From the IMG/VR virus record IMGVR_UViG_3300034101_003180, positions 748 to 64,747 of that record: a stretch of 64,000 nucleotides of DNA. One strand, 5' to 3'. The stretch's first letter is position 1. Each line of letters opens with the position of its first letter. Shown here one piece after another: positions 3,544 through 55,599 of this stretch. The notes below the pieces were generated by a model. That model saw nothing but the letters and a program-made list of their open reading frames with translations, did not search any database and was not told where the DNA came from. The translations under genes and the position numbers were made by a program. Source of the DNA: a virus (lineage: Duplodnaviria; Caudoviricetes).

Positions 3544-3933
3544 ATGGAAAATATTTATGACCCAAATGTAGTATTAGGTGATACTTTACGTTGGTCTATG
3601 GCTATCAAAAATAGTGCTGGATCCAGTTATGATCTAACTGGATCCACATTATCTATGCAAATTAGATCTGGATATTATCCTAGTTCCGTTTTAGTATCAT
3701 ACAGTACCGGAATAACAGCAGGGACTATAATTTCAATACCAGAAGGTTCTACTGGTGGTTTAGCTGCAGCCACAGGTGGTTCTGTAAATATCTGTGTTGG
3801 TTCTAATTATACTAAAAATTTTCCACCATATACTCAAATTTTTTATGATCTGCAACAGATAACATCTGGTGGAGATACTATAACTCTTTTAAGAGGAAAA
3901 ATAAACACAATTTTAGATGTAACAAGAACATAA
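3544..3933 (+). CDS. BppU/Ig-like virion structural protein
   Basis: GDT...YDLTG...MQIR...YDLQ...LLRG pattern typical of small baseplate-associated beta proteins. Confidence 0.6.
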
Positions 3934-46146: not shown

Positions 46147-46205
46147 AATATACTGCATGATTTAGCAAAGTCAAATCTTGACTATAAGTATTCATAGGCT
46201 ATACT
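46147..46205. promoter_or_regulatory. Divergent pair of sigma70-like promoters
   Basis: - strand TTGACT-16-TATATT; + strand TTGACT-16-TATACT ahead of tRNA cluster. Confidence 0.75.
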
Positions 46206-46214
46206 GTGTTCGTT

Positions 46215-46286
46215 GCGGGTGTAACTCAGTGGTAGAGTGCTAGCCTTCCAAGCTTGCTGTCGAGGGTTCAAGTCCCTTCACCCGCT
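46215..46286 (+). tRNA. trnG: tRNA-Gly(UCC), no CCA
   Basis: GCGGGTG/CACCCGC, CTTCCAA loop, TTCAAGT. Confidence 0.9.
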
Positions 46287-46301
46287 TTGACAATCGAATA
46301 T

Positions 46302-46446
46302 GCACGCTGTTCGGTATGACGAACTAGGATGAATGGCTGGCCAGCAGTCATCTGAAAAGAACTGTAGAGAGGTCCAATAACGGGTAAGTGAAGGCCGTAG
46401 CCTTCGCCTCTCCTTCTTCAAATGGGTTTAAGTCCCTCGGCGTGCT
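46302..46446 (+). ncRNA. 145-nt tRNA-like structured RNA
   Basis: 8-bp acceptor-like stem GCACGCTG/CGGCGTGC, T-arm-like GGG-TTTAAGT-CCC, several internal stems; inside tRNA cluster. Confidence 0.65.
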
Positions 46447-46453
46447 ACAAATT

Positions 46454-46525
46454 GCCACCTTAGCTCAATGGTAGAGCCTTGCTTTTGTAAAGCAGAGGTT
46501 GCGGGTTCGAATCCCACAGGTGGCT
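46454..46525 (+). tRNA. trnT: tRNA-Thr(UGU), no CCA
   Basis: GCCACCT/AGGTGGC, TTTGTAA loop, TTCGAAT. Confidence 0.9.
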
Positions 46526-46528
46526 TTG

Positions 46529-46610
46529 GCGAGTATACTCAAGCGGTCAACGAGGTCTGACTGTAAATCAGATGGCAAAGCCTACGGGAGTTCGAATCTC
46601 TCTGCTCGCA
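46529..46610 (+). tRNA. trnY: tRNA-Tyr(GUA), no CCA
   Basis: GCGAGTA/TGCTCGC, CTGTAAA loop, long variable arm. Confidence 0.9.
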
Positions 46611-46612
46611 TT

Positions 46613-47221
46613 ATGTACGATATCAATATCCCACATTTTTATTGTTTGTTAAGAAAAGAGCATCTTTACCAAAACAAAGATCATTTCTTTGAATATGAAA
46701 AGGTCGCAGTCTTTGGGGCACAATCAAGTGCTGGAAAGGCTTTGTTGTTTACAGTAATGTTGGATAACGGAACAATAAGAAGTAGAGTTCCAATTCATAT
46801 GTTATGCAGTAAAGAAGGCCCATCAGATCCATTAGATTACTTGCAACTTTGGGATTGTTTTTCTGAAAATGTTACAGTCACAACTTATAGTTTTTTAAAG
46901 GGTGCCAGAGCAAAAGTTATATTTAAAGATAAAAGCCACTCTTGGGGAAATTATAAAATGACATTTGATTGGTATGATAACCCATACAGCAACGAACCAT
47001 CTCAATACAAATGTCTTCACATGATTGAACTGGATAATGGAAATTATGCTCTACAACCAAACAATAGAATATTTTGGAAAGAAATGTCTTTCACAACCAA
47101 GCCATTTCCAGAAAAACCAGATTATAAAGTTGACACACAGGAGTATAGATGCGAGAATAAAAGCGATAGATGGATTATAAGTGATGATGATAATTATTAT
47201 TATGATATAAATCCTACATAA
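46613..47221 (+). CDS. Conserved-looking phage hypothetical protein
   Basis: NIP.FYC..RKE.LY, LQLWDCFS, LDNGNYALQPNNRI; start 2 nt after tRNA-Tyr. Confidence 0.75.
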   Translation: MYDINIPHFYCLLRKEHLYQNKDHFFEYEKVAVFGAQSSAGKALLFTVMLDNGTIRSRVPIHMLCSKEGPSDPLDYLQLWDCFSENVTVTTYSFLKGARAKVIFKDKSHSWGNYKMTFDWYDNPYSNEPSQYKCLHMIELDNGNYALQPNNRIFWKEMSFTTKPFPEKPDYKVDTQEYRCENKSDRWIISDDDNYYYDINPT

Positions 47222-47225
47222 TCAT

Positions 47226-47420
47226 GGTATTGTTGATATCGGATAGAAATGCATATGACACGGGAGTTCGAATCTCCCCGGATCCACTTTACGGGTCCGA
47301 CAGGCATCGATCAGTGCAGAGTATTGAAGAAGGAGATACCCGACACGGGTAACAAGTGTCGTAAATAAACAGTTGCAAATATAAAAGCCGCACCAATGCG
47401 GATGGCTGCTTAAAGCAGTG
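47226..47420 (+). ncRNA. ssrA: Circularly permuted two-piece tmRNA; tag ANIKAAPMRMAA*
   Basis: 3' half (GAC, T-arm, CGGATCC-A to 47286) precedes 5' half GGGTCCG (47293); G3:U70 pair; pk1-like element; tag 47375-47413. Confidence 0.9.
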
Positions 47421-47426
47421 GGGTTT

Positions 47427-47461
47427 CCCGGTTTTCCCGCGACTGAAAAACCGGGTTTTTT
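47427..47461 (+). terminator. Intrinsic terminator after tmRNA
   Basis: CCCGGTTTT...AAAACCGGG-T6. Confidence 0.8.
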
Positions 47462-47479
47462 ATTGCCATAAATATCTTC

Positions 47480-47992
47480 ATGCAGCACCCGAATGAGGGA
47501 TTTATTAGAAATTTTTTAGGCACCGACAAAGCCTACAAAGAACAACTATTAGCTGAAGAGAAAAAGCGAAGAGTTAATGAGTATTTTGCTTGTAAGAAAA
47601 ATAAGCAAAATATTCTTACAGAGCAAAGCAAAAATTCTATCAACAAAACTATTGAAAAAGTTTATTCAAATAGAAAATCAATTTCTTTGAATGAACAAAG
47701 AATAAATCCAAAGGAATGGAAGTTAATAAACACAGAATACGGTTTGTTTTATTATAATGAAAAACAAGATCTATGGATGAATACTTTTGGTGTTATTAAA
47801 AAATCAATTACAGAATTTATTCAAGTAATAGATTACAATGTAATTGATACCGATTCACCAAAAAGAAAAACACCAAATGCACCATCTAATTTCCAAGTTG
47901 AAATTTTAAATGAATTTGGTGATGTTAATTTAACTTGGAATGATAATTCTGATAATGAAAGTGGATTTGCAATTTATATAACTCAACAATAA
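47480..47992 (+). CDS. Late protein ending in the N-terminal half of an FN3 domain
   Basis: PNAPSNF...VNLTWNDNSDNESGFAIY then stop; CATAAATA upstream. Confidence 0.7.
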   Translation: MQHPNEGFIRNFLGTDKAYKEQLLAEEKKRRVNEYFACKKNKQNILTEQSKNSINKTIEKVYSNRKSISLNEQRINPKEWKLINTEYGLFYYNEKQDLWMNTFGVIKKSITEFIQVIDYNVIDTDSPKRKTPNAPSNFQVEILNEFGDVNLTWNDNSDNESGFAIYITQQ

Positions 47993-52141: not shown

Positions 52142-52212
52142 TTCCTTCGCTAGGATTCGAACCTAGAAAGAGAGATCCAAAGTCTCCCGTGTTACCGTTA
52201 CACCACGAAGGA
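52142..52212 (-). tRNA. trnQ: tRNA-Gln(UUG), no CCA
   Basis: TCCTTCG/CGAAGGA, CTTTGGA loop, TTCGAAT. Confidence 0.9.
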
Positions 52213-52758
52213 GTGAACCTTGGCACAATAATTATTCATTATAATGCCAGAGGCAGTACCAACATTGATGCTTCTCACAGAACCATACTGAGGAATGTAA
52301 AGAAGATCATCACACATATCTAGAACGTTTTCAGGAACTCCAATTTGTTCCTGCCCAAAGATCATAATATAATGCACATTGGGGTCAAAGTCAAATGCAT
52401 TTATGTCTTTTGCTTCACGTACATTGTCAATTCCCAATAGTTTAACTTTGTTTTCATGCTTGGAAATAGTTTCTTCAATGTAGGAGCCGAGATCTTCAAT
52501 GCTCCGGACATGACGAAGGTGGGTGTAGTGATGAGTACCGACAGTCCCCCGCCTATCGTACTTTTTATTCCCATAGATTACGACTTCTTTCGCCAGAAAC
52601 GCATTGCTGTTGCGTATAATGGTAGCAATATTAAAATCGTTCCCAATGTTGCAACACACAACAGCATAGTTATGGCGCTTGCTGTCAAGATTAGTGAGTA
52701 TAGCTTCGTCATCCCAATATTTATAATGGTCTATGAGATTACGGGTTTCCGGATTCAT
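52198..52758 (-). CDS. TrmH/SpoU-family RNA methyltransferase
   Basis: N...DFNIATIIRNSNAF, IFGQEQIGV, IPQYGSVRSINV..ASGI SPOUT motifs; stop lies inside tRNA-Gln. Confidence 0.88.
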   Translation of the reverse strand: MNPETRNLIDHYKYWDDEAILTNLDSKRHNYAVVCCNIGNDFNIATIIRNSNAFLAKEVVIYGNKKYDRRGTVGTHHYTHLRHVRSIEDLGSYIEETISKHENKVKLLGIDNVREAKDINAFDFDPNVHYIMIFGQEQIGVPENVLDMCDDLLYIPQYGSVRSINVGTASGIIMNNYCAKVHSFVV

Positions 52759-54061: not shown

Positions 54062-55171
54062 TTATAGAAACTTATTTACTTCCTGTATTCTCTCAGCGAT
54101 CCATTCCATACAGTTCACAGCCATACTATTTCCAAGAACTTTATACCTGTGACCATCTGGACACTCAGGCTTTCCACGCCAAGGAATTAAAGTATAATCA
54201 TCGGGAAAGCCCTGAAGTCTTTCACATTCACGGGGAGTCAGTTTACGCACTCGACTTCTCTGTTGGGTTGGCACAGAAACAAATAAGCCACACTCGTCAC
54301 CAGCAGGACCACCTGAGCCTTTCGCCCATTTGCTGGTTACGGTATCTGAGCAAGTAGGATCGTTGCCACCGTAGAATGGCATGTTCACGATGGCAGCAAA
54401 CGAAGCATTATCTCTTGCCAAAGTATGACAAGGATCACCGGGCACACGACTCTGCCTATTGATGGGTGCAGTTATTTGGAAGAGGTCGTAGGGAACGGGG
54501 ATGTAGGTGTCTCCGTCTTCTCGGTGTCTTGACCAGCCTCTTGCTCCAAGGCACTTTGCAATATCTTCGGGAGAACCTTCCCCCGCTTTGCTGCGCGACT
54601 TAGAATGCCTTTGCAGGCTTTGGGACTCAAAAAGAACTTGGGCTGCACTGGTTGTGTCTCCAAGACATCCGACAACGAAGACACGTCTCCTACGCTGCGG
54701 CACGGCAAAGGGGTGCCCGTGTGTTCTGACCCATTGAGCGTCCAAGATCCGGTAGGCCCACCCATACCCCAAGTCCCCCAGCGCCCCGAGGAAGGTTCCA
54801 AAATCCCTTCCTCCGTTGCTGGACAGAACACCGGGGACATTTTCCCACACAATCCATCGGGGGCGCTGACTCCTAGCGATCTCAAGGTAAGTGAGCATGA
54901 GTCCTCCACGGGGATCGGAGAGTCCTCCTCTGAATCCTGCCAAAGAGAAAGACTGGCACGGAGTACCCCCAACGAGGAGGTCAATTTGTTCTTTGATTTC
55001 CCATTTTTCATAATTTGTCATGTCTCCAAAGTTTGGAACATTCGGATAATGGTGAGCCAATACAGCAGATGGAAATGGATCAACCTCGCTGAATCCAACG
55101 GGTTGCCACCCAAGAGGATGCCATGCAACCGTAGCGGCTTCAATACCAGAACATACTGATAAGTATTTCAT
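54062..55171 (-). CDS. C5 cytosine DNA methyltransferase
   Basis: SVCSGIE, GGTPCQSFS, WENVPG, PQRRRRVF, LTPRECERLQGFP, GNS. Confidence 0.93.
   Translation of the reverse strand: MKYLSVCSGIEAATVAWHPLGWQPVGFSEVDPFPSAVLAHHYPNVPNFGDMTNYEKWEIKEQIDLLVGGTPCQSFSLAGFRGGLSDPRGGLMLTYLEIARSQRPRWIVWENVPGVLSSNGGRDFGTFLGALGDLGYGWAYRILDAQWVRTHGHPFAVPQRRRRVFVVGCLGDTTSAAQVLFESQSLQRHSKSRSKAGEGSPEDIAKCLGARGWSRHREDGDTYIPVPYDLFQITAPINRQSRVPGDPCHTLARDNASFAAIVNMPFYGGNDPTCSDTVTSKWAKGSGGPAGDECGLFVSVPTQQRSRVRKLTPRECERLQGFPDDYTLIPWRGKPECPDGHRYKVLGNSMAVNCMEWIAERIQEVNKFL
54472..55011 (-). CDS. Nested alternative-frame polypeptide resembling M.EcoHK31I beta subunit (start may be 54840)
   Basis: SLSDVLE...KFFLSPKAC.GIL.RA.KRGK.LP..L..AL in a shifted frame within the MTase. 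Confidence 0.65.
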   Translation of the reverse strand: MKNGKSKNKLTSSLGVLRASLSLWQDSEEDSPIPVEDSCSLTLRSLGVSAPDGLCGKMSPVFCPATEEGILEPSSGRWGTWGMGGPTGSWTLNGSEHTGTPLPCRSVGDVSSLSDVLETQPVQPKFFLSPKACKGILSRAAKRGKVLPKILQSALEQEAGQDTEKTETPTSPFPTTSSK

Positions 55172-55599
55172 ATTAATTCGTTAGAAGAATCAGTTGTATG
55201 TGGCACACCGTCTCTTATTCGCTCCAAATATCTGACGGCATTCAAAACACCTTCAAGATCATCACCTAATTTTCCAATTCCAATATTACAGAGATCACAT
55301 ATCCAACCACGAAACTTATTGGTCTTGTAATCATGATCTAAAATAAGTTTTCCTTTTGGTCTATCTTTCGGACTTTTTCCACAACATTGACATAATTCTG
55401 TAACAGGAGGTGCAGTCTTATGTATTTCTCTTATAACTTTATCAAATTTTCTACCACAATCCACACAACGAGGATGATAATAATTTCTATCTTTTCTAAA
55501 AGAAGAAATGGGTTTTCTTTCCTTGCAACGAATACAAATTTTTGTAGTAATCAATTTAGGTTGACTTACTTCAAAAATTTTGTTTAATTCTTCTTTCAT
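55168..55599 (-). CDS. Endonuclease VII-like His-Me finger nuclease
   Basis: CxxC repeats, LDHD.....RGWIC..CN..IG...D; start 8 nt after tRNA-Pro. Confidence 0.85.
   Translation of the reverse strand: MKEELNKIFEVSQPKLITTKICIRCKERKPISSFRKDRNYYHPRCVDCGRKFDKVIREIHKTAPPVTELCQCCGKSPKDRPKGKLILDHDYKTNKFRGWICDLCNIGIGKLGDDLEGVLNAVRYLERIRDGVPHTTDSSNELI

Follow-up and report, generated by a model that had tools for sequence, protein, structure and literature searches.

A conserved tRNA-shaped RNA without an anticodon loop in the tRNA array of a T4-like lake phage

The locus

The stretch of DNA analysed here (the window) is a 64-kb piece, 64,000 nucleotides (nt) long, of the IMG/VR virus record IMGVR_UViG_3300034101_003180; the record measures 64.7 kb, has a CheckV completeness estimate of ~36% and belongs to a T4-like freshwater (lake) phage. 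Its plus strand bears an array of transfer RNA (tRNA) genes at 46215-46610, where ARAGORN and Rfam place tRNA-Gly(tcc), a gap of 167 nt, tRNA-Thr(tgt) and tRNA-Tyr(gta). That gap, and more precisely the segment 46302-46446 (+), is the subject of this report. It encodes a 145-nt RNA, termed A-type below, which runs from a G1 to a discriminator U, carries no CCA, and is tRNA-shaped at both ends with an entirely different structure where the anticodon arm should be; it is backed by the fold, by alignment and by a score of 169.6 bits with R1, a model built from the six A-type sequences found. Besides the window, five contigs (L062, L125, L083, L109 and L113) carry the RNA in full at 83-97% identity. 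A sequence-only reading of the window had noticed a tRNA-like RNA gene within the tRNA array, and this description holds: the gene has no match in Rfam and is conserved with compensatory changes.

The three tRNA genes around it are unremarkable. The upstream neighbour, tRNA-Gly(tcc), lies at 46215-46286 (+; ARAGORN; 67.5 bits with RF00005), and the downstream array members are tRNA-Thr(tgt) at 46454-46525 (+), which follows the 145-nt RNA directly, and tRNA-Tyr(gta) at 46529-46610 (+), both called by ARAGORN and Rfam. None of the three encodes CCA, and neither does the 145-nt RNA. Between tRNA-Gly and the A-type lies a 15-nt spacer or 5' leader (46287-46301, +) that starts with TTGACAAT, ends in U at position -1 and is kept in all six loci. 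The sequence-only reading had seen here a boxA-like GCTTTGACAAT; the first three of these bases turn out to be the last three of tRNA-Gly, what is conserved is the spacer TTGACAAT, and the tests gave no support for antitermination. In L007 and L065, too, TTGACAAT comes after tRNA-Gly, there preceding a different RNA, and a promoter scan reported no -10 partner for it.

Upstream of the array, a sigma-70-like promoter, TTGACT-16 nt-TATACT (46178-46205, +), ends 9 nt before tRNA-Gly; it is a consensus match only (10 of 12 positions), and the 2 kb scanned hold 12 such sites versus 6.9 expected from shuffles. A search for terminator-like sites on the plus strand within the array found none. The promoter-like site together with the absence of an internal terminator-like site makes co-transcription of the array plausible.

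The fold of the A-type RNA

All the stems that the sequence-only reading had listed are present where it had put them, the length is indeed 145 nt, and the flanks are tRNA-Gly(tcc) and tRNA-Thr(tgt). The RNA is closed by a terminal, acceptor-like stem of 8 base pairs (bp) formed by GCACGCTG (46302-46309) and CGGCGTGC (46438-46445, +), the latter strand being followed by the discriminator U (T at 46446); the stem includes one U-G pair. It can be described as 7 bp plus G8-C, where G8 could instead extend the D stem, as RNAalifold draws it (G8-C23). All eight of its pairs are kept in all six sequences, pair 3 being A-U or G-U and pair 7 U-G or U-A. At the other end of the upper branch stands a T-arm (46423-46437, +) consisting of a U-U opposition, a GGG/CCC stem (46424-46436) and a 7-nt loop, TTTAAGT, that reads TTCAAGT in three relatives; the terminal stem, discriminator and GGG-TTTAAGT-CCC arm thus stand as first described. 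The combined acceptor/T branch is readable as 8 bp, U-U and three G-C pairs, or, with RNAalifold, as 7 bp, an unpaired C and 4 bp; none of these bases varies. An acceptor stem, a discriminator base and a T-arm with a 7-nt loop are all present, every pair being kept in 6/6 sequences.

Several further elements lie between these two tRNA-like ends. A D-like arm (46310-46323, +) with a 4-bp stem, TTCG/CGAA (46310-13 / 46320-23), and a 6-nt loop is followed by an invariant CTAG junction (46324-46327, +), a motif in common with the B-type RNAs of relatives described below. The anticodon-arm position is taken by a hairpin (46328-46352, +) with the stem GATGA/TCATC (46328-32 / 46348-52) and a loop of 15 nt (46333-46347) containing the 10-nt self-complementary sequence GCTGGCCAGC; the loop measures 15-16 nt in all six sequences, as opposed to the 7-nt loop on a 5-bp stem of a tRNA. 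Next comes a purine-rich junction strand, TGAAAAGAACTGTA (46353-46366, +), whose helix with 46416-46422 is kept in 6/6 sequences via one-sided changes only and whose region RNAalifold folds otherwise. An oversized branch of 46 nt at the place of the variable arm (46367-46412, +) completes the molecule; its stem GAGAGG/CCTCTC (46367-72 / 46407-12) encloses two small hairpins, TCC..GGG and GAAGGC-CGTA-GCCTTC (46390-95 / 46400-05). The same helices appear in the minimum free energy fold of the single sequence, at -49.7 kcal/mol.

Known RNA families and coding potential

Over 46302-46446, Rfam 15 gives no match, neither at gathering scores nor at E<=10 with permissive filters, in a run in which the three neighbouring tRNAs score 54-68 bits (RF00005 gathering score, 29 bits). 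With its default settings ARAGORN predicts neither a tRNA, with or without an intron, nor a transfer-messenger RNA (tmRNA) there. The models for tmRNA (RF00023, RF04321 and RF01850) do not match the 145-nt RNA, ARAGORN -m at 80% of the usual threshold finds nothing, and the YrlA model RF02553 has no match over it at E<=10. A gene for Ro (TROVE, PF05731) is absent from the 64.7-kb record, a genome fragment (~36%), and manA and GOLLD have no Rfam match at E<=10 in 46150-47600. The claim that the RNA has neither anticodon loop nor tag frame accordingly holds (no RF00005 or tmRNA match at E<=10, nothing from ARAGORN by default), and the comparison with manA, Y RNA/Yrl, GOLLD and tmRNA, without a match at E<=10, leaves it in no known family.

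Two other ways of reading the segment were dropped. The only open reading frame (ORF) there, of 47 amino acids on the minus strand, is broken in homologues by indels of 1, 1 and 2 nt. A C/D-box or kink-turn motif, GGATGA...CTGA, read by eye, is absent from three of the six homologues. In the literature searched, with subscription journals, old T4 RNA papers and supplements outside the search, no description of the 145-nt RNA was found. Public sequencing runs were also consulted: 24 were listed, 2 of them recorded as RNA and another 3 guessed to be so, and in the four compared with the window (X20, X24, X22 and X21) no contig lies over 46304-46405, a result with no bearing on expression; what these contigs do match are tRNA-like segments from other organisms and a portion of the tmRNA discussed at the end.

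Covariation and the RNA strand

The proposed structure comprises 37 pairs and was tested on a MAFFT alignment of the six sequences (222 cells), the same sequences from which it had been derived. As many as 99.1% of these cells pair, versus 43.5-55.4% after a shift of the 3' partners by 1-3 columns, and the observed covariation score was reached by only 5 of 500 shuffles. By the count of the tool, two pairs have changed on both sides: one in the D stem (alignment columns 11:20; C-G in three sequences vs U-A in three) and one in the extra arm (columns 70:111; G-C in five vs A-U in one). Five more pairs vary on one side only, via G-U. The hairpin at the anticodon-arm position differs by group, with the stems GAUGA/UCAUC, GACGA/GCGUC and GACUA/GAGUC, which adds two further pairs changed on both sides. 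RNAalifold, given no structure, recovers the acceptor, D, extra-arm, inner-hairpin and T helices. With its own member sequences R1 scores 164-177 bits (the window's 169.6 bits falls on the plus strand), as against <10 bits on the reverse strands of the homologues; together with the kept G-U pairs, this contrast fixes the plus strand as the RNA strand.

Could the A-type nonetheless be an odd decoding tRNA? At 80% of its usual threshold, and under relaxed settings only, ARAGORN does draw a tRNA-Ala(cgc) with a 72-nt intervening sequence after position 29, and the exon pairing this implies, AGGA/TCCT, is present in 6/6 sequences. At default settings with introns allowed, however, the program finds nothing, no Rfam intron family matches, and bacterial group I introns are far longer than a 72-nt insert. 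The supposed anticodon varies by group (CGC vs CAC), with a pyrimidine at position 37; moreover, the compensatory columns 70:111 join a base of the 'intron' to one of the 'exon', and the covariation of the hairpin stem falls within the 'intron'. An intron-containing tRNA-Ala(cgc) conflicts with the covariation and would have to differ in anticodon between homologues, and it was rejected as having next to no chance of being right.

Distribution of the A-type

The ORF downstream of the array has 313 relatives in IMG/VR, and BLAST of the 145-nt RNA against the best 80 of these loci found the A-type in L062 (83% identity) and its 3' part in L057. A scan of 241 million metagenome records for an exact pattern taken from the loop and T-arm returned 53 stretches, five of which are true homologues (L125, 96.6%; L083, 95.9%; L109, 85%; L113, 84%; and L092, which is probably the L062 contig, having the same length and R1 score); the other 48 have no BLAST match beyond the pattern. 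Exact-pattern scans of IMG/VR itself were less productive: one gave no match, two only the L062 contig, and a fourth the L062 contig and L215. The last is a chance match and was discarded, as R1 finds nothing there and the contig bears no tRNA. A run of the same pattern over 185,579 prokaryote species, each represented by one genome, returned 40 stretches that are all chance matches (BLAST matched 14-17 nt, or up to 22 nt in two loci, little beyond the pattern), and hence no host or prophage copy with that exact pattern. Neither R1 nor R2, the corresponding model of the B-type, finds anything in the whole genomes of Flavobacterium phage immuto, the Pelagibacter phages HTVC008M and Mosig, and T4 (0/4 each).

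In every true case the order is tRNA-Gly(tcc), the A-type, tRNA-Thr(tgt) and tRNA-Tyr(gta), followed, where the contig reaches that far, by the ORF and a permuted tmRNA gene. The RNA is rare, being found in three IMG/VR contigs, and some close relatives do without it. The loci nearest by the neighbouring protein (L002-L006, ~91% identity) read Asn-[ORF]-Thr-Tyr and have a B-type RNA before the tmRNA, and in L056 and L014, tRNA-Gly, tRNA-Thr and tRNA-Tyr are joined by 2-nt spacers with no A-type element. A distribution this patchy among close relatives is consistent with a function that is accessory, related to conflict or specific to the host.

Rarity would equally be expected of a tRNA gene duplicate that has picked up insertions and is decaying without a function, and the arrays are in flux, given the endonuclease genes inside them and a gene order that differs between close relatives. 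The A-type, however, does not look like sequence adrift. Its length is held at 145-146 nt across the homologues, with 99.1% of cells paired at 83-97% identity; compensatory changes extend to the inserted parts; and the flanking spacers carry indels, whereas the indels of the RNA itself cancel in length. We regard decay as improbable.

Other tRNA-shaped RNAs in related arrays

Other small RNAs occupy the gaps of tRNA arrays in related contigs; they have a T-arm and an acceptor-type stem and lack a 7-nt anticodon loop. The commonest of these, the B-type, is 73-83 nt long (e.g. L002:4535-4616, an 82-nt form; L015:2788-2870; L009:4539-4619). A pattern scan found it in 31 IMG/VR contigs (L177-L207), with 17 distinct sequences of which 16 were aligned; it lies in tRNA arrays or directly before tmRNA, occurs once in each of the three larger contigs holding it, and has no Rfam match. 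Its structure is cloverleaf-like, 98.1% of cells being paired vs 33.5-48.4% after sliding, and 12 of its 23 pairs have changed on both sides, a result that none of 500 shuffles equalled.

Longer B-like forms and RNAs of a further kind (C/E-type) occur at L056:3727-3822 and 3827-3913, L014:3701-3796 and 3801-3914, and L012:4525-4638, in tandem after tRNA-Tyr or before tRNA-Pro and tmRNA; in the C/E-type, a D-like arm is accompanied by a variable arm and by a small hairpin whose loop is of the GACAA type. The B- and C/E-types resemble the A-type in several respects. They inhabit the same arrays, have CTAG after the D-like arm, G1-C2 and, in most, a discriminator T; their T-arm follows the scheme A-T/A-GGG-T..A...-CCC-T/A-C with a non-standard basal pair and then C; and an elongated arm with a self-complementary tip replaces the anticodon arm. 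They differ in being 73-115 nt long and in having the big branched arm absent or simpler. R1 scores 25 bits on the B-type (E 0.006).

A D-type of ~145 nt occupies the slot before tRNA-Tyr in other loci (L007:2452-2598; L065:142-289; L010/L011:3688-3832; L012:3688-3830); it is conserved, lacks tRNA-like ends, has 4 of 30 predicted pairs compensated, and gives no Rfam match at E<=1 in the three loci scanned (L007, L065 and L012). The arrays of relatives also contain endonuclease genes (L009:3443-3823, L014:3293-3694 and L002:3330-3746), two of which match HNH_3 (26.9 bits) and PD-(D/E)XK (51.4 bits), the third ORF having an HNH-like motif by eye and no Pfam match; their presence recalls segB in the tRNA cluster of T4.

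One rival explanation is that the tRNA shape is kept purely as a processing signal, a kind of punctuation recognised by RNase P and the 3' nuclease, the excised RNA having no role of its own, as with the t-elements of plant mitochondria; t-elements are named in PMC1920247. In its favour, the array is polycistronic and has no internal terminator, and in L002-L006 the B-type sits directly between the ORF and the permuted tmRNA, just where a cut is needed. At the locus studied here, true tRNAs on both flanks already supply the cuts, an extra arm of 46 nt and a loop of 15 nt, conserved with compensatory changes, exceed what a cleavage signal needs, and L056 and L014 manage Gly-Thr-Tyr with 2-nt spacers and no such element. 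For the A-type, the punctuation explanation is thus unlikely.

A second possibility is that the A-type is a carrier that is aminoacylated and acts outside translation, a synthetase that reads the acceptor (e.g. glycyl-tRNA synthetase, GlyRS, or threonyl-tRNA synthetase, ThrRS) charging it so that it feeds or blocks a tRNA-dependent enzyme. It has G1-C72, C2-G71 and U73 in common with the adjacent phage tRNA-Gly, elements that we take to be identity elements for GlyRS, and one homologue has G3-U70. For the B-type, a comparison with the 18 isoacceptor classes of these loci puts tRNA-Gly(tcc) nearest to its top half (best score 11 vs <=5 for any other class). There is also a precedent in irregular tRNAs that, according to the part of the report available, are charged but unused in translation (PMC5389517). 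On the other hand, anticodon bases are missing, the top half of the A-type is no closer to Gly than to Thr (the two classes tie), and a gene for a tRNA-dependent transferase or synthetase was not found among the 40 window ORFs tested (3 of them scanned in two libraries). A charged carrier is a decidedly unlikely explanation.

At L020:8367-8437 lies what is, by eye, a regular tRNA-Gly(tcc) with a B-type-like T-loop (TGCAAAT) and acceptor stem, scoring 22.4 bits with R2. The likeness of this tRNA-Gly hints that the B-type may have been derived from tRNA-Gly.

Self-complementary arm tips

The tip of the elongated arm of the A-type is the 10-nt palindrome GCTGGCCAGC, in the loop 46333-46347. In the B-type, seven of ten distinct loops (columns 37-45 of its alignment) contain palindromes of 6-8 nt, which none of 20,000 random loop sets reached, a figure that cannot be taken as a probability given that the sequences are related. 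The palindromes differ among relatives (TTGCAA, TTATAA, TGTACA or TTCTAGAA), and the B-type exceptions include one 4-nt non-palindromic loop and one TTGTAA. Palindromic tips could mean that two copies pair loop to loop, that the partner is dimeric or that the cause lies at the level of DNA, and are best treated as a lead.

The last of these amounts to an explanation in its own right, namely that selection acts on the DNA, the palindromes and inverted repeats being sites for homing endonucleases, methylases or recombination. Hairpin tips that are perfect palindromes here and in relatives speak for it, as do the endonuclease genes in related arrays and a C5 DNA methylase gene in the window. G-U pairs, which on the other strand would read A-C, are nevertheless kept (U7-G, U-G in the extra arm, G3-U in one sequence), and the tRNA-type geometry with spacers of 7-15 nt fits an RNA. 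Selection on the DNA alone is consequently very improbable.

Comparison with known tRNA-like RNAs

The only studied example of a stable tRNA-like RNA from a phage tRNA cluster is RNA C of T4 (species 1 RNA, rnaC), a parallel that the sequence-only reading had drawn and that stands: RNA C too is encoded in a tRNA cluster, measures 139 nt, and combines a T-arm with ends that pair. Its existence was confirmed by Northern blot in a 2022 omics paper, and its role is stated to be unknown both there and in a 2010 review, as far as the available parts of these sources go (PMC3014915, PMC9697503). Like the A-type (139 vs 145 nt, both within the tRNA cluster of a T4-like phage), RNA C has its T-arm adjoining the 3' strand that is paired to the 5' end, contains long inserted hairpins and has no anticodon. 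Unlike in the A-type, the T stem of RNA C is canonical with 5 bp, the terminal stem contains two U-U mismatches, and a D-like arm is lacking. The similarity does not extend to detectable homology, R1 scoring 12.6 bits on rnaC (E 0.19), the level of ordinary tRNAs; T4 RNA C is not in Rfam. To judge from these comparisons, the A-type is analogous, not homologous, to T4 RNA C.

Mukai et al. 2017 described irregular 8/4 tRNAs, some of them in tRNA clusters of alpha-proteobacterial phages, and the accessible portion of that paper takes some allo-tRNA-like RNAs to be non-translational (PMC5389517). As described in that portion, these (8/4) tRNAs and allo-tRNAs share with the A-type a long extra arm and a home in phage tRNA clusters, and the acceptor/T branch of the A-type can be read as 8 + 4 layers, though RNAalifold gives another split. 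They keep a 7-nt anticodon loop and are named by their anticodon, whereas in the A-type the loop measures 15 nt and the extra arm is branched and far larger.

The tRNA-like domain of tmRNA is similar in combining an acceptor stem and T-arm with another structure in place of the anticodon arm, and in tRNA-like processing, which for the A-type is presumed. The A-type differs from tmRNA in having no tag reading frame, no pseudoknots and no match to a tmRNA model, and in bearing A3-U70 rather than G3-U70 in five of six sequences. YrlA, finally, is a non-coding RNA of bacteria and some phages that mimics tRNA with parts resembling the T- and D-arms, as set out in the part of the source at hand (PMC4201824). 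The A-type is likewise a non-coding tRNA mimic with T- and D-arm-like parts; it does not match RF02553 at E<=10, and no TROVE gene accompanies it in the 64.7-kb fragment. The ends of YrlA lie in a Ro-binding stem, not in an acceptor stem.

A proposed non-decoding tRNA mimic

The A-type fits no described RNA family, it cannot read codons, and its reading as a new tRNA-like family is supported. Taking all the evidence together, we consider it a processed, stable, non-decoding RNA derived from tRNA that acts in trans as a tRNA mimic, and would put the probability of this at roughly 60%. Phage tRNA arrays are now seen both as a supply for codon usage and as tools against host defences directed at tRNA.

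How might such an RNA be made and act? It would be transcribed together with tRNA-Gly, tRNA-Thr and tRNA-Tyr from the promoter-like site at 46178-46205 and be cut by RNase P at G46302. RNase P prefers U at -1, and U occupies that position in all six loci. The 3' end would then be trimmed and CCA added by the host enzyme, a step suggested by the fact that the A-type, like the neighbouring tRNAs, encodes no CCA. The mature RNA may act in trans, its acceptor/T 'top half' giving entry to tRNA-binding factors, and specificity for a partner, or pairing between two copies, coming from the big extra arm and from the extended arm, whose tip is self-complementary.

Which factor might be addressed? The sequence-only reading had considered a decoy for anticodon nucleases, among other targets. 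This is unlikely, because an RNA of 145 nt without an anticodon loop offers such a nuclease nothing to cut; a decoy role of any kind finds no support, and a more likely partner than an anticodon nuclease is one that recognises the elbow or the acceptor end. Any specific role as a sponge has a probability much below that of the general reading.

Several observations weigh against a conserved tRNA mimic acting in trans, or at least against parts of it. Only six sequences from about three divergence groups are available, and four of them came from a search whose pattern prescribes the loop and the beginning of the T-arm, where invariance is therefore partly a product of ascertainment. The tool's count of only two pairs changed on both sides was reached by 56 of 500 shuffles, and the two compensated pairs of the hairpin stem depend on our own reading across a gap in the MAFFT alignment. 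Double changes that break pairs also occur: a U-U closes the inner hairpin in two of six sequences, and an A-G stands at the fifth pair of the hairpin stem in three of six. RNAalifold draws the centre of the fold differently, including whether CTAG pairs with the TGA after the hairpin. The single sequence folds with a weak z of -2.18, 4 of 200 shuffles folding as well. Homology between the A- and B-types is not significant, R2 scoring 17-18 bits on the A-type (E 0.2-0.35), the level of true tRNA-Gly. That the RNA is processed and stable is deduced from its position and shape. Finally, a partner protein is not evident, the ORFs around the array belonging to no tRNA-related family except for a SpoU methylase 6 kb away.

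A more adventurous idea, tentative and itself rather doubtful, would have T4-like aquatic phages encode a whole superfamily, so far undescribed, of tRNA-derived 'tRNA shells' that lack an anticodon, with the A-type as its most elaborate member; the B-type, for one, resembles a derivative of tRNA-Gly. In such shells the anticodon arm would have become a long helix with a self-complementary tip, allowing copies to pair or a dimeric partner to bind, and after RNase P cleavage and CCA addition the RNAs would act as sponges, taking up host factors or immune effectors that hold a tRNA by its acceptor end or its elbow. If true, this would provide a lead to the long-unexplained role of T4 RNA C. To our knowledge, no role has been assigned since the 1970s to RNAs C and D of T4, the non-tRNA RNAs of its array. 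Non-decoding tRNA-shaped RNAs, of several types and with covariation support, are also kept by a distant T4-like lineage of lake phages, which points to a recurrent function rather than to an oddity of T4. The types further offer comparative material for experiments, as they have conserved loops and a self-complementary tip and differ in whether the extra arm is present.

The phage and the neighbourhood of the array

The assignment of the phage as T4-like is based on a T4 neck protein in the window (PF11649, 149 bits) and on genes for a gp43-type DNA polymerase and ribonucleotide reductase; the DNA polymerase is ~41% identical to those of T4-like cyanophages, and no close cultured relative was found. 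The ORF that follows the array (46613-47221) encodes a widespread phage protein labelled 'PurM/ferredoxin' (phrog_3704). It was dropped as a candidate partner, since it occurs in many phages without such RNAs.

Farther along, a C5 cytosine DNA methylase gene (54062-55171, -) and one for endonuclease VII (55168-55599, -) lie between tRNA-Glu and tRNA-Pro. The gene for the SpoU-family RNA methyltransferase (52198-52758, -; 81.9 bits) overlaps the end of tRNA-Gln (52142-52212).

Right after the ORF ending at 47221, and ~750 nt downstream of the 145-nt RNA, comes a permuted (two-piece) tmRNA gene (47196-47504, +), for which ARAGORN gives the tag ANIKAAPMRMAA and which scores 53.6 bits with RF04321 (gathering score 47), relatives scoring 58-82 bits. 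Two-piece tmRNAs are already known from phages, namely Melnitz and pelagimyophages, in the part of the paper available (PMC9004378). Contigs of two public runs match part of this tmRNA with 0 differences, X24 (on record as RNA) over 47327-47431 and X22 (probably DNA) over 47320-47432, before unlike sequence follows; the exact match followed by divergence implies that a relative or a host shares this part of the tmRNA.

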